From: a virus
IMG/VR virus record: IMGVR_UViG_3300033148_007780
DNA length: 28,404 nucleotides
Direction: 5' to 3' (one strand)
Numbering within the stretch: position 1 is the first letter of the stretch; every line of letters begins with the position of its first letter. The position numbers were made by a program, and so were the translations under genes. Shown here in pieces: positions 584 to 25,805 of this stretch. The notes beneath the pieces were generated by a model, which was not told where the DNA came from, did no database searches, and saw only the letters and a program-made list of their open reading frames with translations.

Positions 584-1312
584 ATGTCTAATATTTTTCT
601 TTGCAGTGATTTGCATACTAATTTTTATAGAGATGGCGGAAAAGATTTAATTGACCAATGTTATGCCGAAGATGTTGATATTGCTATTGTAGCTGGAGAT
701 TTGTCCATAACTGTTAATGATTTGTTACAAGATAATATTAAAATGTTTTGTGACAAATATCCGGAATTCATTTTTGTAACCGGAAACCACGATTATTACC
801 ATAATGCTTTTCGCAAAGTAGATGACTTACTCAAACAACTTGATTCTCGTATATCTAATTTCCATTTTCTTAATAATGATAGAATTACACTTTTGGGCCA
901 TTCGTTCGTCGGTGCAACACTTTGGTTTCCTCGCAATACCCAAACAGATTCAAACAAACATATGTTAGATGATTTTCGTTATATTAAAGATTGTGACCCG
1001 ATAGTATATCAAAAACACAAAAAAACAATTGATTTTTTTGAAGATAATATAAAAGAAGATGATATAGTTATTACTCATCATATGCCCACTTATAAAAATG
1101 TTGGGCCGAAATATAAAAATTCGCCACTAAATTGCTATTTTGCTTGCGACCTTGATGATATGATTCGAGATAAAAAGCCAAGCAATTGGTTTTGTGGCCA
1201 TTCTCATATTGGATGTAGTTATTTATATTATTCTACTTATATGGTTGCTAATCCATTTGGTTATCCGGGAGAAAATAGTTTTTATAATAATTCTTTTATA
1301 ATTAGGATTTGA
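584..1312 (+). CDS. Calcineurin-like metallophosphoesterase
   Basis: Motifs AGDL, GNHDYY, ITHH and CGHSHIG match the metallophosphatase signature (GDxxD/GNH[DE]/GH.H). Confidence 0.8.
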   Translation: MSNIFLCSDLHTNFYRDGGKDLIDQCYAEDVDIAIVAGDLSITVNDLLQDNIKMFCDKYPEFIFVTGNHDYYHNAFRKVDDLLKQLDSRISNFHFLNNDRITLLGHSFVGATLWFPRNTQTDSNKHMLDDFRYIKDCDPIVYQKHKKTIDFFEDNIKEDDIVITHHMPTYKNVGPKYKNSPLNCYFACDLDDMIRDKKPSNWFCGHSHIGCSYLYYSTYMVANPFGYPGENSFYNNSFIIRI

Positions 1313-2098: not shown

Positions 2099-3187
2099 AT
2101 GAAATATAAAATTATTGAAAATAATAGCAAGAAACTTGTACTATCCGAAAATTACAATTATTCTTTTGATAAATCTGATGGTAAGTTTTGTAGATGGGGC
2201 AAAACTGCATGTGACGAAGATGATCCGTCTTTTTCTCCAATTGGTCCAGAGATTTTGGATTGGGAAATAAGCACTATTTGTAATATGGGGTGCAAGTGGT
2301 GTTATAAATCAAATACATCTGTTGGCAAAAATATACCGTTCGATGATTTTAAGAAAACTTTTGAGAAAATACCAAAATCCGTTTGCCAAATTGCATATGG
2401 CATTGGGTCTATTAATGCGTTCCCCGATCTGTTTAAGATTTTGAATTACACTCGTGATCGCGGAATTATTCCTAATATTACTATTAATGGCCAAGCAACT
2501 GATGAGGAGCTTGAGCAATTGGCCATGGTTTGTGGTGCCATTTCTGTATCGCATTATAGTAATGATCTTTGTTATGATGCTATTACTAAGTTAACTGAGC
2601 TGTCTAAATTGGATTCCGCTACGTTGCGACAAGTTAATATCCATCAGCTTTTGGCGTCAGAAACATATGATGATTGTTTATCAGTTATTAATGATATTAA
2701 AAATGACGAAAGATTGAAAGATTTAAATGCCATTGTGTTTCTGCTACTAAAGCCTCGTGGCAATAGAAATACTTTTACGAGTGTAACTTATCAACAATTC
2801 GCGAATATTATTTCTTATGGCCAACAGAAAAAAGTATCGTTGGGTATGGATAGTTGTTCTGCACCGATGATGATAAAATATGTTAGTGAGAATAATCAAA
2901 AAGATATTTTGCCGAGTATAGAGCCTTGCGAAAGTTCTATTTTCTCTGGTTATTTTAATGTTGATTGCGACTATTTTCCTTGTTCTTTTTCTGAAAACAT
3001 CGGTGAATGGGAAAAGGGAATTAGTGTTTTAAATTGTGAAGACTTTATGAATGATGTTTGGTTCAGCGAAAAGGTAAAAAAATGGCGCCAGAATCTCATC
3101 AAATCGTCATCTGGGTGCAAGTGTAAGGTCAAAAATTACTGTCGTTTGTGCCCGGTTTTTGATATTACTCCATGTTTTAAGGGATAG
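2099..3187 (+). CDS. Radical SAM enzyme with Cys-rich SPASM/twitch-like C-terminal domain
   Basis: CNMGCKWC (Cx3Cx2C) near residue 60. Ten Cys in the last ~110 aa, ending CKCKVKNYCRLCPVFDITPC. GGAG SD upstream. Confidence 0.8.
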   Translation: MKYKIIENNSKKLVLSENYNYSFDKSDGKFCRWGKTACDEDDPSFSPIGPEILDWEISTICNMGCKWCYKSNTSVGKNIPFDDFKKTFEKIPKSVCQIAYGIGSINAFPDLFKILNYTRDRGIIPNITINGQATDEELEQLAMVCGAISVSHYSNDLCYDAITKLTELSKLDSATLRQVNIHQLLASETYDDCLSVINDIKNDERLKDLNAIVFLLLKPRGNRNTFTSVTYQQFANIISYGQQKKVSLGMDSCSAPMMIKYVSENNQKDILPSIEPCESSIFSGYFNVDCDYFPCSFSENIGEWEKGISVLNCEDFMNDVWFSEKVKKWRQNLIKSSSGCKCKVKNYCRLCPVFDITPCFKG

Positions 3188-5852: not shown

Positions 5853-5929
5853 ACTCTCATAACTCAGCTGGATAGAGTTTTGGTTTTCTAAACCAAGGGT
5901 CGAAGGTTCGAATCCTTCTGAGAGTGCCA
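5853..5929 (+). tRNA. tRNA-Arg (anticodon TCT)
   Basis: Manual cloverleaf. Acceptor actctca/tgagagt; D-arm actc-agctggata-gagt; anticodon stem ttggt/accaa with loop ttTCTaa; T-arm gaagg-ttcgaat-ccttc; discriminator g and encoded CCA. Confidence 0.9.
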
Positions 5930-17133: not shown

Positions 17134-17619
17134 ATGGTTAGATATGTAAAACAAAAAGATGATACGAGTTGTGGACCAATTGCTCTTATTAATACTTTGA
17201 AATGGCTCGGTTACAAAGTATCATATGATTTTATTCATGTTGCTCGTTATTTGTGCAAATGGGATGGTAAGAACTCAGAAGACGGCGCCGGCACAACAGA
17301 TAAAAATCTTGACTCGGCATTGAAATATTTTAAAATAAAGAAGAAGCGCAAGGTTCAACCAAAACTTAAAGAAATTGATGATCATTTGGATTCTGGTGGG
17401 GCCGTTATTATTAGTTATTACAACACTTATTCAATGCCAGGATTTAAAATAGATTTGGGTCATTATGCGTTGTGTATAGGGCGAACATCACAAACATATA
17501 TGATGGTAAATGACATATGCAAAAAAGCAAAAAATAAAAGATATAAAGATACGATGAAGGCAATACTTAGAAATGAAGTTGATGGAGACAAATGTTCAGT
17601 ATGGCTTATATCTAAATAA
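17134..17619 (+). CDS. Papain-fold cysteine peptidase, C39-like
   Basis: Q-x4-DTSCGPIALINTLKWLG (C39 Cys motif) and GHYALCIG (His). Confidence 0.55.
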   Translation: MVRYVKQKDDTSCGPIALINTLKWLGYKVSYDFIHVARYLCKWDGKNSEDGAGTTDKNLDSALKYFKIKKKRKVQPKLKEIDDHLDSGGAVIISYYNTYSMPGFKIDLGHYALCIGRTSQTYMMVNDICKKAKNKRYKDTMKAILRNEVDGDKCSVWLISK

Positions 17620-20174: not shown

Positions 20175-20186
20175 GTGATCCACAAA

Positions 20187-20549
20187 ATGAAATATTTTGC
20201 ATCTTTACCATCAAGAATTAAAAAGAAATTAAAAAGAAATTATACTTTATGTAATCACGAAACAAGTAGAATGCACTGTTTGTTAAAAAATATATTTACT
20301 TTAAGTGGTGCAGCGGTGGCTTTTACAAAATCAAATAGAATTATTGGCTGGTCGAGTGTCGAAAATAGCAAAATTAATGACGTTACGCTTGTGTGTACAT
20401 TTGTTTCCGAAAAGCATAGACATAAAGGATATGCCAAACAATTGGTACATCGTTGCATTGAAGAAAATGAACGAAGAAATTATTTAATTTATAGTCACAT
20501 ACAAAATAGATTTGTTCAGATTGGTGATATTTTGTATGAAAATAATTAA
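20187..20549 (+). CDS. GNAT-like acetyltransferase (tentative)
   Basis: VCTFVSEKHRHKGYAKQLVHRCIEE resembles the GNAT acetyl-CoA-binding motif. Confidence 0.45.
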   Translation: MKYFASLPSRIKKKLKRNYTLCNHETSRMHCLLKNIFTLSGAAVAFTKSNRIIGWSSVENSKINDVTLVCTFVSEKHRHKGYAKQLVHRCIEENERRNYLIYSHIQNRFVQIGDILYENN

Positions 20550-21393: not shown

Positions 21394-22536
21394 ATGGTTC
21401 CTCTAATAATATTGATCACGTTGGTACAAGCTTCCACGACGCAAGAACAAAATATAACCCATACGGTCGCTGTCGGCAACCCACTGGCTGATGCGACGGT
21501 TCATGCCTCACACTACGCAGCCGTGCCTGCCGCCATGGGCTACGCCATGGAGGCCTTTGCCCAACGCTATCCAGATATCGACCGCAACCTGGCCTACCGC
21601 TTCCTGGAAATGGCGGTCATGGTGGGCGCCGAAGTGCCGTGGATGGTTCTTAGCCACGAGGGGGGCCACTACCGCGCCGCAACGCGGCATGGCTGGGATG
21701 CCGAGATCGAAATGACTGGTTGGGCCAGTGGGCTGACGCGCATTAGACTCTCTTCCGATATCCACACAATTAATCAACAACTCGTCGAAATTACTGCCGC
21801 AGGCATTAATCAAGAAACAATAAATTCATTACATATTTATCGCAACTGGGTAATTAATGGTAGTGTACGTTATCAAGAAGCGTTAAGTTTTTTATTGGCC
21901 GAAACAAATATGGCCTTGTACGCGATTAGTACATTTCAAAAAGGCAATAATATTTCTGAGCCAGACGATATTAATATTTATATTCAGCTTCTTAACGCAA
22001 AAAATCAAGATATTAAAATTTCTGATCTTATGGAAGCGGCACTGATTGCAAATTTATTTTCGGCATCTTTTTGGGCTGCGCTGATTGGAAATATTCAATT
22101 TGTTGTAACTGGTGACAGGCATATTAGTATTCCAAGTTTCAACATAGGTTTAGTTGAAATTATTCTTCCAAATTTTCATTTATTTCTTGATAGTAAAGGT
22201 CCGTTTTTTGGTGGAACGATTGTTATTAATCCGAAGAATTTCATACCAATAGAATTGCGTACTGATATTCGATTTAATGGCCAAACAGTAGCAACAAGTC
22301 TACGACTACACAAAATTATAATTCTCGATTGGTTGTGCGTTAGTCCTCATCTCGCTGGATCTTACGATATCAATCAAGGAATCGGTTATATTATTGGTGC
22401 TGACATTGGTATTAATTTTAATCGCGACCTTGGCGTTATTGTAGGTGCCACTTATATTCATGATTTTGCATTCAATGAGGTTCGAGGACGCAATAATGGA
22501 ATTACAATTAATGCAGGAATAGAATTGCCCTTCTAA
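21394..22536 (+). CDS. Secreted protein with a GC-rich mosaic N-terminal domain (HEGGH motif) and an outer-membrane beta-barrel-like C-terminus
   Basis: Signal-peptide-like N-terminus. Nucleotides 21463-21742 are about 65% GC inside a 28% GC gene. C-terminal ...NGITINAGIELPF has alternating hydrophobics and a terminal Phe. Confidence 0.6.
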   Translation: MVPLIILITLVQASTTQEQNITHTVAVGNPLADATVHASHYAAVPAAMGYAMEAFAQRYPDIDRNLAYRFLEMAVMVGAEVPWMVLSHEGGHYRAATRHGWDAEIEMTGWASGLTRIRLSSDIHTINQQLVEITAAGINQETINSLHIYRNWVINGSVRYQEALSFLLAETNMALYAISTFQKGNNISEPDDINIYIQLLNAKNQDIKISDLMEAALIANLFSASFWAALIGNIQFVVTGDRHISIPSFNIGLVEIILPNFHLFLDSKGPFFGGTIVINPKNFIPIELRTDIRFNGQTVATSLRLHKIIILDWLCVSPHLAGSYDINQGIGYIIGADIGINFNRDLGVIVGATYIHDFAFNEVRGRNNGITINAGIELPF

Positions 22537-22767: not shown

Positions 22768-22992
22768 ATGAGAATAAAAAAGAAACCTGATCATTGGCCA
22801 GCTACATCACCAAAACAACAAATCGAGGGGCTTAAATTTATTGTGAAGCAAATAAATATTACGGATTTCGAATGGTCCCTTAAGCTATTGACTTGGAACA
22901 AATATATGAGTAAATCTAAGATGGCATCACTGTTAAGACGTTATAGAAAAATAGCTAACATTTCGTATAATCAGTGGAGAAAAGACAAATGA
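22768..22992 (+). CDS. Hypothetical basic protein
   Basis: ATGA overlap with the downstream ligase gene. Confidence 0.4.
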   Translation: MRIKKKPDHWPATSPKQQIEGLKFIVKQINITDFEWSLKLLTWNKYMSKSKMASLLRRYRKIANISYNQWRKDK

Positions 22993-24161
22993 GTACCATA
23001 GAAACGAAAATAGTTAAAGCAAAAATATTTCCACATTCGAACGCCGATAGATTAGAAATGGCACAGTTATTCGGAGATGGTGGATTTGAGTGCGTTGTTG
23101 GTAAAGGGCAATTTTTAAATGGCGATCTTGTCATATATATAATGCCTGACTCCATACTTAATGAAGAAATGTGTACGATTTTGGCAGAACGTAGCAAAAT
23201 ACAAATTAAAGACGGCCGCATTAGAGCGATTAAGGTACGCGGTATACTTTCCGAAGGACTGTGTTTAGACCCAAAAGAGTGGTTGGATCATGAGGTTAAA
23301 GAAGGTGATGATGTAAGCGAAGAACTTCGGATTACAAAGTTTGAGCCCCCACCAAAGCGTATGCAGAGTGTTGCAAGAAGCGGTAAAGGAATCAACTTTA
23401 ATTATGAGAATGAAAATTTTAAAAAATATTATTGCGTAGAGAAATTTAAGAAATCCCCGAAAATTTTAGCCGAATTGAATCAGGATGTGGTCGCTACAAT
23501 AAAATATCACGGCATGAATTGGAGAGGTGGGTGGGTTACAAAGCCGGTCTATAAAAAGACATGGTGGAACAAACTTATTAATCTATTTATTAAGGAAGAG
23601 CCAAAAGAGTTTTTGATTGGGTCGCATAATAAAATTAAAATTCCAACAAAAAATTCTATTAAATATGGGGATTATTATAATACAGATGCTTGGTGGAGAA
23701 TTGCCAAAAAATATAATATAGAAACCATTGTTAAACAAATTTCAGAACAAGAATCATTAATTTCTTATGGACAAAAAGAGCCGCCAAATGTAATAATATA
23801 TGCAGAGGTAGTTGGCCCCGGATGTCAGAAAAATTATTGTTATGGAGTTGAACGGGGAGAGTTAGAAATTAGAGTATTCGACATTATGATTAACGGAAAA
23901 TATTCTGATTGGGATAAGGTAGTTCATTTGTGCAAATGCTTTGATTTACCCATTGCCGAAGAAGTATATTCGGGTCCTTGGAGCCTTGATGTGGTTAAAT
24001 ATGCGTCCGGAAAAGACGAATACAATGGTAAAAAGCATATTAGAGAGGGCATTGTAATTAGACCGCTTATTGAGTCATGGCACCCAAAATGTGGTAGAGT
24101 AATTTTCAAATATCTTAATGAGACTTATTTGCTTAATAAAAATAACACGGAACATCATTAA
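22989..24161 (+). CDS. RNA ligase (Rnl2/ATP-dependent nucleotidyltransferase family) with N-terminal tRNA-binding OB (Myf/EMAP-like) domain
   Basis: N-terminal VKAKIFPHSNADRLEMAQL...ECVVGKGQF..GDLVIYIMPDSIL fits the Myf/Trbp111 pattern; KYHGMNW (KxHGxN motif I); the track start at 22974 is a GTG. Confidence 0.7.
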   Translation: MSTIETKIVKAKIFPHSNADRLEMAQLFGDGGFECVVGKGQFLNGDLVIYIMPDSILNEEMCTILAERSKIQIKDGRIRAIKVRGILSEGLCLDPKEWLDHEVKEGDDVSEELRITKFEPPPKRMQSVARSGKGINFNYENENFKKYYCVEKFKKSPKILAELNQDVVATIKYHGMNWRGGWVTKPVYKKTWWNKLINLFIKEEPKEFLIGSHNKIKIPTKNSIKYGDYYNTDAWWRIAKKYNIETIVKQISEQESLISYGQKEPPNVIIYAEVVGPGCQKNYCYGVERGELEIRVFDIMINGKYSDWDKVVHLCKCFDLPIAEEVYSGPWSLDVVKYASGKDEYNGKKHIREGIVIRPLIESWHPKCGRVIFKYLNETYLLNKNNTEHH

Positions 24162-24176
24162 ATTAGGAATTCGATA

Positions 24177-24443
24177 ATGCCTATTTATGAATATGTATGC
24201 CCGATATGCAAAAAGGAAAAAGAAATTATACAACATTTCGATGATCCGCCGCCAGAATGCGAAAAATGTCATAAAAATATGGAAAAAATAATGAGTTTAT
24301 CTTCATTTGCTCTTAAAGGCACCGGATGGTACATAACTGATTACGGAAGAAAGAAGAAAGCCAGTGGAATTAATAAATTACCTAAAGACAAACGGACTAA
24401 AAAATCTGGTAGAACAGCACAAGATAAGTGCAAAAAGGCATAG
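24177..24443 (+). CDS. FmdB-family zinc-ribbon protein
   Basis: MPIYEYVCPICKK...PPECEKCH...FALKGTGWYITDY matches the FmdB signature. Confidence 0.65.
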   Translation: MPIYEYVCPICKKEKEIIQHFDDPPPECEKCHKNMEKIMSLSSFALKGTGWYITDYGRKKKASGINKLPKDKRTKKSGRTAQDKCKKA

Positions 24444-25443
24444 TGAATATAATAATCTTGTGTTGCTAAAGTATAATCAAATCGAATCAGACATGGGCAA
24501 TAAAATAGTTCAGCAATGTAGGGGAATTATTATTGATGAGGCGGATGATTATAAGATAATTTGCAGGATATTTGATAAGTTTTTTAATTTTTCTGAGGGC
24601 CACGCAGCAAAAATAGACTTCGAAAACTCACGCATTTATGAAAAGGTTGACGGATCTTTGTGTCAACTGTATTATTATGATGGAGAGTGGAGAGTTTCTA
24701 CAAGTGGAAGCCCAGATGCCGGCGGAAGTGTTGGTGATTTTAACAAGACTTTTAAAGAATTATTTTGGGAAACTTGGAGTGATTTAAATTATAAGTTGCC
24801 AGATGATACCAATATTTCGTACGCCTTTGAGCTTTTAACTCCGTACAATACAATTGTTGTACAGCATAAAGACAGCACTATTGCTTTGCTCGGGGCGCGG
24901 AATTTAGTTACGCAAAAAGAACTCAACCCAATTATAGAATCCCATCAAAACGGATGGCAGTGTGTGAAAACATTTGACTTTGAAGATCGTGAGGAAATAG
25001 AAAAAATACTGAAAGGCATGAACGGATCAGAGCAAGAAGGCTTTGTCGTATGTGATATTAATAGTTATAATCGCGTAAAGATGAAGTGCGAAGATTACGT
25101 TAAAAAGCATCGTTTAGTATCCTGTATGAGTCAAAGAAATATGTTGGATGCGGTAAGGACCAATGAAGGTGATGAAATACTTTTATATGCCCCACAATTC
25201 GAAAAGTTATTTTGGGAAATAAAGTGTAATTACGAGAGGCTTGTAGGGCGTATTGAAGGGTTTTATGATGCAACAAAACACATAGAAGATAAAAAAGAAT
25301 TTGCTCTATTGGTAAAAGATCAAAAGTTTTCTGGTGTATTATTTGGTTTGCGACATGGAAAAATAAACAGTATTCGACAAGGTATAGCCGACATGAATAT
25401 TAAGCAACTTGAGCAATGGCTTGGTATGAAATTGAAAGAATAA
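24364..25443 (+). CDS. rnlA: RNA ligase 1 (T4 RnlA family)
   Basis: QCRGIII...RIFDKFFNFSE and KVDGSL (motif I KxDG) parallel T4 Rnl1 ECRGIMF...RPMEKFFNLNE and KEDGSL; overlaps the FmdB gene by 80 nt in another frame. Confidence 0.85.
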   Translation: MELINYLKTNGLKNLVEQHKISAKRHSEYNNLVLLKYNQIESDMGNKIVQQCRGIIIDEADDYKIICRIFDKFFNFSEGHAAKIDFENSRIYEKVDGSLCQLYYYDGEWRVSTSGSPDAGGSVGDFNKTFKELFWETWSDLNYKLPDDTNISYAFELLTPYNTIVVQHKDSTIALLGARNLVTQKELNPIIESHQNGWQCVKTFDFEDREEIEKILKGMNGSEQEGFVVCDINSYNRVKMKCEDYVKKHRLVSCMSQRNMLDAVRTNEGDEILLYAPQFEKLFWEIKCNYERLVGRIEGFYDATKHIEDKKEFALLVKDQKFSGVLFGLRHGKINSIRQGIADMNIKQLEQWLGMKLKE

Positions 25444-25445
25444 TA

Positions 25446-25718
25446 ATGAATAGACACAATCATAAGCAAAAACTCAAAGATATTGGTCGATACAGTTTGA
25501 ATAATAAAACGGCAATAGGAAAAAGCGAAGTTTGTGGTTGTTATTATTGTTGCCGCACATTCATGCCGTTAGAAATTATAGAGTGGATTGATTCTAATAA
25601 TACAGCATTGTGTCCTCGGTGCGGCATTGATTCTGTTTTGCCAAGTTATATAACTGGTATTGACACAATCACTGATTCCGAATTTTTAAATGATATGCAC
25701 GAATACTGGTTTGTTTAG
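25446..25718 (+). CDS. Cys-rich zinc-finger protein
   Basis: CGCYYCC...CPRCG; alternative track start at 25416. Confidence 0.5.
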   Translation: MNRHNHKQKLKDIGRYSLNNKTAIGKSEVCGCYYCCRTFMPLEIIEWIDSNNTALCPRCGIDSVLPSYITGIDTITDSEFLNDMHEYWFV

Positions 25719-25777
25719 TAGATAAAAAAAAAATTGTATATTTTATTTGTTTATTGAAAGAAATCAAGATCTGTTGC

Positions 25778-25805
25778 TTGACCCCTAAAAGAAAAATGGT
25801 ATTAT
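25778..25805 (+). promoter_or_regulatory. Sigma70-like promoter candidate TTGACC-N16-TATTAT
   Basis: -35 at 25778-25783 and -10 at 25800-25805, which overlaps the track ATG at 25804. Confidence 0.3.

Follow-up and report, generated by a model that had tools for sequence, protein, structure and literature searches.

The 28,404-nt viral contig IMGVR_UViG_3300033148_007780 from IMG/VR (hereafter the window, which refers to the contig at its full length) carries genes for two ATP-dependent RNA ligases that belong, judging by their sequences, to different families, Rnl5 (ligase 1) and Rnl1 (ligase 2). The catalytic motif sets of both proteins are intact, and the order of the two genes is conserved in related contigs. 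Two RNA ligases of different families lying side by side had already been noticed in a first-pass annotation of the window, and our analysis agrees on this point. In the ORF (open reading frame) listing of the window, region 22989-25718 holds four ORFs, all on the plus strand: ligase 1, a gene for an FmdB-family zinc ribbon, ligase 2, and a small ORF termed ORF D. With moderate confidence, we place the two ligases in a heal-and-seal RNA repair pathway, whose sealing half they would constitute and which would restore tRNAs and possibly other RNAs.

Ligase 1 matched two Pfam families above their gathering scores, PF21189 (PHA02142 OB-fold; expectation value (E), 3.1e-10) and PF09414 (RNA_ligase; 1e-13), and it matched PHROG 968 with an E-value of 3.4e-43. 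The ORF listing extends the frame to GTG 22974. We kept the start at ATG 22989, as first annotated, on the basis of the ATGA overlap with the upstream stop codon, a GGAG sequence upstream, and an identical (100%) database protein, P0001, which begins at the same ATG. Motif I reads T170-I-K172-Y-H174-G175-M-N (KxHGxN), with the lysine codon at 23502-23504, and the other motifs are represented by E273 (motif III), F297 (IIIa), R352-E353-G354 (IV), and K374 (V). In an alignment of 37 homologs, T170, K172, H174, G175, E273, F297, R352-E353-G354, and K374 show no or hardly any variation, and the nucleotidyltransferase motifs expected of the annotated enzyme are all present. The catalytic residues align with K170, E227, E312, and K326 of NgrRnl, and the residues matching this set are essential in DraRnl and NgrRnl (PMC1807946, PMC7261155).

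The first-pass annotation had described ligase 1 as an Rnl2-like enzyme. The KxHGxN nucleotidyltransferase preceded by an OB domain is indeed there, but the protein is assigned here to the Rnl5 (DraRnl/NgrRnl, TIGR02306) family instead. A single-sequence search with the N-terminal 128 aa found NgrRnl (5cot, residues 5-128) with an E-value of 1.4e-9, the value for T4 Rnl2 being 0.18. With a profile of the 37 homologs, NgrRnl (5cot) was matched over its full length (2.8e-57), and T4 Rnl2 in the nucleotidyltransferase domain only (7.8e-19). Among the NCBIfam models, the score for TIGR02306 (the DRB0094 family) was 122.4 bits, below the equivalog cut-off of 151.15, and that for TIGR02307 (Rnl2) was 20.5 bits against a cut-off of 197. 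Because the TIGR02306 cut-off was not reached but both Pfam gathering scores were passed, we regard ligase 1 as a divergent member of the Rnl5 family rather than a non-member. Neither PF18043, the C-terminal helical domain of Rnl2, nor any further Pfam domain was detected after the nucleotidyltransferase domain of ligase 1, and the same Pfam search did detect PF18043 in the Rnl2 of another phage locus (L027). The protein stops 16 aa beyond the motif V lysine, and thus has no Rnl2 C-terminal domain. The absence of this domain, together with the strong preference of the profile for NgrRnl, rules out the Rnl2-like assignment.

The domain order of ligase 1, an OB domain followed by a nucleotidyltransferase domain without a C-terminal appendage, is the same as that of DraRnl (DRB0094), NgrRnl (5cot), and ORF209c of phage 44RR2.8t. 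Ligase 1 differs from NgrRnl and DraRnl in being approximately 50 aa longer, with extra segments inside the nucleotidyltransferase domain, from the GenBank phage Rnl5 enzymes in being just 24-30% identical to any of them, and from the known Rnl5 enzymes in that its gene lies immediately beside one for Rnl1. With T4 Rnl2 (RnlB, 2hvq) it shares the PF09414 family and the KxHGxN form of motif I, and the nick-sealing chemistry is probably similar; T4 likewise couples a nick-sealing ligase with Rnl1. Unlike T4 Rnl2, ligase 1 carries an OB domain at the N-terminus in place of the Rnl2 C-terminal domain.

The N-terminal region of ligase 1 had been annotated as a Myf/EMAP-type tRNA-binding OB fold fused to the ligase. 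Its homology to the solved OB fold of NgrRnl bears out the fold, and K117 and D54 are the counterparts of K121 and D53, which are ATP and metal contacts in NgrRnl. In the N-domain of NgrRnl, Arg4 and Lys121 touch the γ-phosphate of ATP and Asp53 a metal, and the domain is required for adenylylation and dispensable for step 3 (PMC7261155, PMC4408790). The Rnl5 profile also found tRNA-binding OB domains, namely the C-terminal domain of MetRS (5h34, 6e-6; 1mkh, 1.8e-5), PheRS-beta (4p71, 1.6e-4), and YgjH (3ers, 5e-4). PF01588 (tRNA_bind) was matched by 12 of the 37 homologs at E ≤ 1 (best, 6e-4), and the window protein gave no match at this threshold; membership of ligase 1 in tRNA_bind is therefore taken as not established. 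These comparisons point to distant homology of the OB domain with tRNA-binding OB folds rather than to tRNA_bind membership. Raymond and Shuman (2007) reported that the N-domain of Rnl5 resembles the B2 OB fold of PheRS, and that a homolog is present in Aeromonas phage 44RR2.8t (PMC1807946). The annotated relationship to tRNA-binding folds thus holds as a distant one, and the idea of an extra fusion does not, since on sequence grounds the domain is the signature N-domain of the Rnl5 family itself.

Ligase 2 had been taken for a T4 RnlA homolog, and this identification is upheld by its matches to PF09511 (RNA_lig_T4_1; 9e-20) and PHROG 562 (3.6e-44) and by the motifs. Motif I is K94-V-D96-G97-S98 (KxDGS; lysine codon, 24643-24645), and R53, F73, K94, D96, G97, E156, E225, G226, K239, and K241 are invariant in 37 homologs, among which K72 is also conserved. 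A profile of these homologs found T4 Rnl1 structures as the sole matches (2c5u, 2e-17). The aligned residues of the T4 Rnl1 active site are R54, the F77 region, K99, E159, E227, G228, K240, and K242. The AlphaFold2 model of ligase 2 has a pLDDT (predicted local distance difference test) score of 93.5, and its C-terminal domain (residues ~243-352) is all-helical. In a Foldseek search the best match of the model was T4 Rnl1 (2c5u, 3.4e-16, 387 columns), with a TM-score (template modeling score) of ~0.5 in the whole-protein alignment; the ligase domain of fungal Trl1 (9qw7) was also matched. Ligase 2 resembles T4 Rnl1 (RnlA, gp63) in the form of motif I, in the Rnl1-specific segment upstream of it, where R53 and K72/F73 match R54 and K75/F77 of T4, in the all-helical C-domain, and in being phage-encoded. 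It differs from T4 Rnl1 in that it is only ~18-20% identical and starts with a GTG codon inside the preceding gene. Its score against TIGR02308 was 50.8 bits, below the equivalog cut-off of 242.25. The subfamily of ligase 2 is widespread, with members in phages as well as in metagenome-assembled genomes of cyanobacteria, Patescibacteria, and other organisms; some of these members, 43-46% identical to ligase 2, have been named 'T4 RnlA family RNA ligase' by NCBI.

The annotation of PHROG 562, 'RNA ligase and tail fiber protein attachment catalyst', raises another reading of ligase 2. T4 gp63 has a second, tail-fiber attachment activity, and the Rnl1 homolog might mainly be a non-catalytic morphogenetic factor of this type, its pairing with Rnl5 being coincidental. 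We regard this as very improbable: the catalytic residues of ligase 2 are all invariant in the 37 homologs, many cellular organisms, such as cyanobacteria and Patescibacteria, carry members of the family although they lack tail fibers, and Pfam and PHROG scans of the window revealed no structural genes near the ligases.

Table 1. Features of the ligase locus and of other parts of the window, and content of the Rnl5-Rnl1 junction in the window and in related contigs (designated by L numbers, with positions in their own coordinates)
Feature	Position	Strand	Basis or content
Rnl5-family ATP-dependent RNA ligase (ligase 1), 390 aa	22989..24161	+	PF21189 and PF09414, PHROG 968, NgrRnl profile match
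Rnl5 N-terminal OB domain, residues ~1-128	22989..23372	+	Match to NgrRnl 5-128
Rnl5 nucleotidyltransferase domain	23436..24161	+	Motifs I, III, IIIa, IV, V; invariant alignment columns
FmdB-family zinc ribbon, 88 aa	24177..24443	+	Core residues 1-60; Lys-rich tail coded within the Rnl1 gene
Overlap of FmdB tail and Rnl1 N-terminus, 80 nt, different frames	24364..24443	+	Sequence; conserved Rnl1 N-terminus
Rnl1-family (T4 RnlA-type) ATP-dependent RNA ligase (ligase 2), 359 aa, GTG start	24364..25443	+	PF09511, PHROG 562
ORF D, small zinc ribbon, function not known, 90 aa	25446..25718	+	CGCYYC...CPRCGIDSVLP motif
Junction, window	24162-24363		FmdB
Junction, L001	3113-3571		Nucleoside 2-deoxyribosyltransferase-like gene
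Junction, L003	9182-9815		Three small ORFs
Junction, L006	1435-2346		Reverse-strand treble-clef zinc-finger gene (DUF4379/CapR-like)
Junction, L007 and L008			Empty; 11-nt gap between called genes
74-aa ORF, no known role	22768..22992	+	Stop overlaps Rnl5 start as ATGA; L002 homolog in same position
380-aa ORF	21394-22536	+	Within a second patch of high GC (0.43); ligase cluster starts shortly downstream
Calcineurin-like metallophosphoesterase	584-1312	+	phrog_1649 (2.3e-44); generic Metallophos match
Major Vault Protein homolog, full-length, 847 aa	8847-11390	+	MVP_shoulder (1.7e-24), Vault_3 (4e-9)
HD_4 protein, 205 aa	27697-28314	+	Match to RelA/SpoT N-terminal hydrolase region

The order Rnl5 then Rnl1 is kept in six related contigs (L001, L003, L006, L007, L008, and L011); in L007 and L008 no other gene separates the two, and L011, a more distant contig, has them side by side as well. 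From this shared order in relatives with differing inserts or none (Table 1), we infer that the tandem is probably ancestral and that the junction is an insertion hotspot. Three relatives, L004, L005, and L002, the last being the most syntenic to the window, have Rnl5 without an adjacent Rnl1, and in a 481-kb relative Rnl1 is located elsewhere on the contig. A 364-aa gene beside Rnl5 in L005 and a 366-aa gene beside the ORF D homolog in L009 proved not to be Rnl1 relatives. In the T4-like Aeromonas phage 44RR2.8t, Rnl5 and rnlA share a strand and are 2.3 kb apart.

The FmdB ORF at the junction in the window matched Zn_ribbon_8 (1.7e-10) and TIGR02605 (56.5 bits; cut-off, 31.3). Its overlap with the Rnl1 gene, which had been noted in the annotation, turned out to be genuine. 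The 43 N-terminal residues of Rnl1 read from GTG 24364 are kept in homologs of 356-370 aa, in which 98-100% of the 359-aa reading is covered, and the homologs have in common the N-terminal sequence xLxxYLKxxGLxxLxxxxxIxxKRHxxYxNLVLLKYxQ. Because the homologs share this encoded N-terminus, we assign the start of Rnl1 to GTG 24364, and hence regard the 80-nt overlap as real. The JGI (Joint Genome Institute) call for this gene, P0105 (316 aa), starts at Met44 and lacks the 43 conserved residues (24364-24492), presumably since the caller avoided both the overlap and the GTG start; the present reading corrects this truncated public gene call from 316 to 359 aa. The FmdB gene itself had been counted as a part of the repair module. 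We do not retain it there: none of the related contigs examined has an FmdB counterpart between Rnl5 and Rnl1, where relatives have nothing or unrelated genes. FmdB is accordingly classified, from these gene comparisons, as an incidental insert and not a module component, and the reach of its tail into Rnl1 seems to be a side effect of its having inserted there.

In the reading that we favor, the RNA damage would come from host or competitor ribonucleases that cut tRNAs and possibly other RNAs. Each ligase would adenylylate itself at the motif I lysine (K172 in Rnl5 and K94 in Rnl1) to form lysyl-AMP and would pass the AMP to the 5'-PO4 end of an RNA, after which attack by the 3'-OH would seal the break; the family assignments imply this chemistry. 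By analogy with DraRnl and NgrRnl, the Rnl5-type enzyme may act on nicks in a duplex or stem whose 3'-OH strand is RNA, and by analogy with T4 Rnl1, the Rnl1-type enzyme may act on breaks in single-stranded loops, for example the cleaved anticodon loop of a tRNA. Jointly, the two could cover a wider range of reversible ribonuclease damage. The healing half, a 5' kinase and a 2',3'-phosphoesterase, would have to come from another part of the genome or from the host. In T4, Rnl1 with Pnkp repairs tRNA-Lys cut by PrrC. Analogy of this kind and the gene neighborhood suggest the substrates, the role in tRNA repair and counter-defense, and the possible expression of the genes as an operon, and we consider an RNA-repair reading of the pair reasonable.

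The distribution of end-healing genes in other phages lends support to this reading. Pnkp was first searched for with a T4 Pnkp probe sequence, and six of the strong hits were confirmed by Pfam (AAA_33 plus HAD_PNKP); a later profile was made of these six hits and the probe. In IMG/VR, a Pnk-like ORF was found within 8 kb of Rnl1 in 24 of 69 distinct loci, eight of which have a full-length Pnkp with AAA_33 and HAD_PNKP (six Pfam-checked). Pnkp abuts Rnl1 in L023, L027, L057, and L068. A Pnk-like ORF was likewise found in 23 of 80 Rnl5 loci, often as a stand-alone Walker-A kinase of ~130 aa directly upstream of Rnl5, or else as a full Pnkp. Rnl1, Pnkp, and Rnl5 occur within 7 kb in L016 (7986-15036), and L027 (7995-10902) has three contiguous genes for Rnl1, Pnkp, and an Rnl2 with its C-domain. 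In phages, then, each of the two ligase families is repeatedly associated with the healing of 5'-OH/3'-phosphate ends. Since distant phage relatives of each ligase often adjoin Pnkp or a stand-alone kinase, and since both families recur beside end-healing genes, the heal-and-seal reading of the window gains support by association. It is favored as well by the tRNA and translation genes that relatives of the contig carry and by the two tRNA genes of the window. The ~130-aa Walker-A kinase has the look of a polynucleotide kinase dedicated to phage Rnl5 as its partner. It lies upstream of Rnl5, often overlapping it, in L132 (7538-7954), L141 (7539-7931), L145, L149, L157, L158, L167, and others, and has the sequence pattern LLRGLPGSGKST...SNTFxxxWEM...VENRHxGxNxHGVP.

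Several points weigh against the heal-and-seal reading. Neither ligase can act on the 2',3'-cyclic-PO4 and 5'-OH ends left by anticodon nucleases, and no end-healing enzyme was found on the 28.4-kb contig. In the close relatives examined, there is no full Pnkp near either ligase, the sole kinase candidate being a 144-aa AAA_33 protein in L004. Both ligases are divergent members of their families, with scores below the NCBI equivalog cut-offs, and the sequence likeness of ligase 2 to T4 Rnl1 ends at about residue 289, the C-domain being the part that gives tRNA specificity in T4. Finally, another role has been suggested for Rnl5 enzymes, namely to seal DNA nicks that are patched with RNA (PMC4408790, PMC5397189).

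The finding that the contig carries no Pnkp agrees with the first-pass annotation. No AAA_33 or HAD_PNKP domain was detected by Pfam in the plus-strand ORFs of at least 90 aa in the window (all scanned but 20175-20549), no Walker A or DxDxT motif was present in any plus-strand ORF of at least 45 aa, 20175-20549 included, and the Pnkp profile gave no match at E ≤ 10 on either strand. In this respect the window is unlike the T4 pair of Rnl1 and Pnkp, there being no Pnkp on the contig or beside the gene in close relatives. Two other proteins were considered as healing enzymes. An HD hydrolase had been included in the annotated repair kit; the HD protein is present, and it matches HD_4 and the N-terminal hydrolase region of RelA/SpoT, a resemblance that led us to reject it as an end-healing enzyme. 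It is probably a phage alarmone hydrolase, and with 81% identity to its L002 counterpart it is the best-conserved gene common to the window and L002. The calcineurin-like metallophosphoesterase, which had no sequence match in the PDB, could in principle heal 3' ends in the manner of CthPnkp; it lies 22 kb from the ligases, and we do not claim this role for it.

The principal alternative is that the two ligases do separate jobs, Rnl1 repairing tRNA and Rnl5 sealing nicks with a 3'-ribonucleotide in phage DNA or RNA:DNA hybrids, such as RNA-patched gaps or primer remnants in replication and repair. DraRnl and NgrRnl require RNA on the 3'-OH strand only, deletion of DraRnl makes D. radiodurans sensitive to ionizing radiation, and the enzymes have been suggested to function in DNA repair (PMC5397189, PMC4408790). 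The neighborhoods can be read in the same direction: L002, L004, and L005 keep Rnl5 without an adjacent Rnl1, none of the 80 IMG/VR Rnl5 loci has Rnl1 within 8 kb, and the Rnl5 gene of 44RR2.8t sits amid genes for replication and nucleotide metabolism (gp32, gp59, frd, and td). Against this alternative stand the abutment of Rnl5 and Rnl1 in two relatives (an 11-nt gap as called), with the same order in six contigs, the polynucleotide-kinase-like gene or full Pnkp that often directly precedes phage Rnl5 and points to 5'-OH RNA ends, and the richness of the relatives' neighborhoods in tRNA-related genes. Weighing both sides, we consider separate jobs possible, if rather unlikely.

Among the tRNA-related genes, those for a CCA-adding enzyme and RlaP are close to Rnl5 in relatives of the contig. 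In L003 (6862-7998) and L004 (6867-8000) an AAA+ ATPase of ~377 aa is coded immediately upstream of Rnl5, with the CCA-adding enzyme a few kilobases further upstream, and L005 has the RlaP nucleotidyltransferase. The AAA_33 protein of L004 is a KTI12-like kinase coded 1.3 kb downstream of Rnl5. The window contains none of the AAA+ ATPase, CCA-adding enzyme, RlaP, and AAA_33/KTI12-like kinase of L003-L005.

The ligases could also process RNAs of the phage itself, for example by joining tRNA halves or exons or by forming RNA circles, rather than serve in counter-defense. The Rnl1 family includes the fungal and plant tRNA-splicing ligases, the model of ligase 2 matches the LIG domain of Trl1 (9qw7), tRNA genes are present, and related phages carry genes for tRNA modification and maturation. 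The window has two tRNA genes, Arg-TCT (5853-5929) and Thr-TGT (14228-14302). The annotation had placed them near the ligases, and they lie 17 and 9 kb upstream of the cluster, respectively. Both are complete and uninterrupted according to ARAGORN and Rfam, neither a splicing endonuclease nor a split tRNA was noticed, and the Rnl1 relatives in other phages adjoin Pnkp in the fashion of T4 repair. A role in processing the phage's own RNAs is thus quite improbable, and repair of damaged RNA remains our preferred explanation for the pair.

ORF D, the gene following Rnl1, would encode 100 aa if its start were ATG 25416. Conservation begins at Met11, including in L002, where no gene overlaps ORF D, and for this reason ATG 25446, 2 nt past the Rnl1 stop, is the likelier start; an overlap of the Rnl1 and ORF D reading frames is accordingly doubtful. 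ORF D is Cys-rich, and its sole match was phrog_30788, a family without known function. It is placed after Rnl1 in L001, L006, L007, and L008 and after Rnl5 in L002, which makes it a lineage-conserved neighbor of the ligases; its homologs beyond the lineage are not adjacent to ligases. Of the zinc-finger genes that had been described as following the ligases, ORF D is therefore a conserved neighbor, and the gene at 25804-26271 is not linked to ligases in relatives. ORF D was modeled as a small zinc ribbon, and its structural neighbors were not informative. It resembles the uncharacterized BFVD entries A0A8F8KSI7, A0A7D3R345, and A0A3G4ZSM1, small proteins of Clandestinovirus, Fadolivirus, and Edafosvirus (TM-scores up to 0.74; 23-26% identity), and also an uncharacterized protein of Achromobacter phage Motura.

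A more far-reaching reading is a self-contained tRNA repair unit of Rnl5, Rnl1, and ORF D, in which the OB domain, distantly related to the tRNA-binding folds of Trbp111, EMAP, and PheRS B2, would recruit tRNA and ORF D or an unrecognized partner would replace Pnkp by supplying a new specificity or an end-healing function. We judge such a unit improbable. If it did exist, recruitment of tRNA by the OB domain would give the Rnl5 enzymes their missing physiological substrate.

The co-occurrence of these ligases is of a kind already known, both from 44RR2.8t, which has Rnl1 and Rnl5, and from jumbo phages with multi-ligase kits. In the kits described by Iyer, Anantharaman, Krishnan, Burroughs, and Aravind (2021), RNA ligases that are not redundant with one another are combined with tRNAs, kinases, phosphatases, RlaP, and CCA-adding enzymes; their survey sorts the ATP-dependent ligases into Rnl1 and Rnl2, without separate mention of a tandem of Rnl5 and Rnl1 (PMC7824862). 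The relatives of the window, which combine a CCA-adding enzyme, RlaP, and Rnl5 in large genomes, resemble these kits. Unlike them, the present locus has two ligases in tight tandem, in one uncultivated lineage, with no adjacent kinase or HAD phosphatase; the tight Rnl5-Rnl1(-ORF D) tandem without an adjacent Pnkp is what is particular to it. The locus thus adds an example and a conserved tandem to the theme of large phages equipped with more than one RNA ligase, each non-redundant, to reverse RNA damage. Its main value is the lead that it offers on the Rnl5 enzymes, whose physiological substrates remain to be found: three neighborhood patterns, namely linkage to Rnl1, an upstream kinase or Pnkp, and the presence of the CCA-adding enzyme and RlaP, tie phage Rnl5 to RNA heal-and-seal.

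The genes of the whole contig are all on a single strand, and its GC content is ~0.33. A blastn search of region 22900-25800 against GenBank phages gave no match, and the nearest GenBank phage matches of both ligases are metagenomic huge phages with 26-33% identity; the lineage has, as far as these comparisons reach, no close sequenced relative. Contigs related to the window are up to 481 kb in size and carry genes for EF-G, HisRS, the CCA-adding enzyme, RlaP, peptidyl-tRNA hydrolase, and peptide deformylase, as well as for Cpn10, a ClpP-like protease, a TilS-like PP-loop protein, and the same HD_4 protein as the window. On account of the size of the related contigs and their gene content, the window is probably a piece of a large uncultivated tailed phage genome, of jumbo or huge size. 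A scan for promoters and terminators was uninformative (31 promoter-like sites, 23.4 expected). One promoter-like site, TTGACC-16-TATTAT at 25778-25805, lies 3' of ORF D and is a weak hint of a unit boundary. The 74-aa ORF preceding Rnl5 gave no match in family searches.

The Major Vault Protein homolog is colinear with rat and human MVP (2e-16) and lies in a GC-rich patch (0.42-0.46 compared with ~0.33 elsewhere), which suggests a recent acquisition of the gene. The sole report of MVPs in phages to date is a preprint from 2023 (10.1101/2023.11.10.566534). The 380-aa ORF in the second GC-rich patch had no match in family searches with Pfam, PHROG, and NCBIfam, and the opposite and alternative frames of this region are also open, as is typical for GC-rich inserts. 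Further accessory genes of the contig encode a radical SAM protein (2099-3187), an R2K-clade ATP-grasp protein (16038-16820), and a C39-like peptidase (17134-17619).

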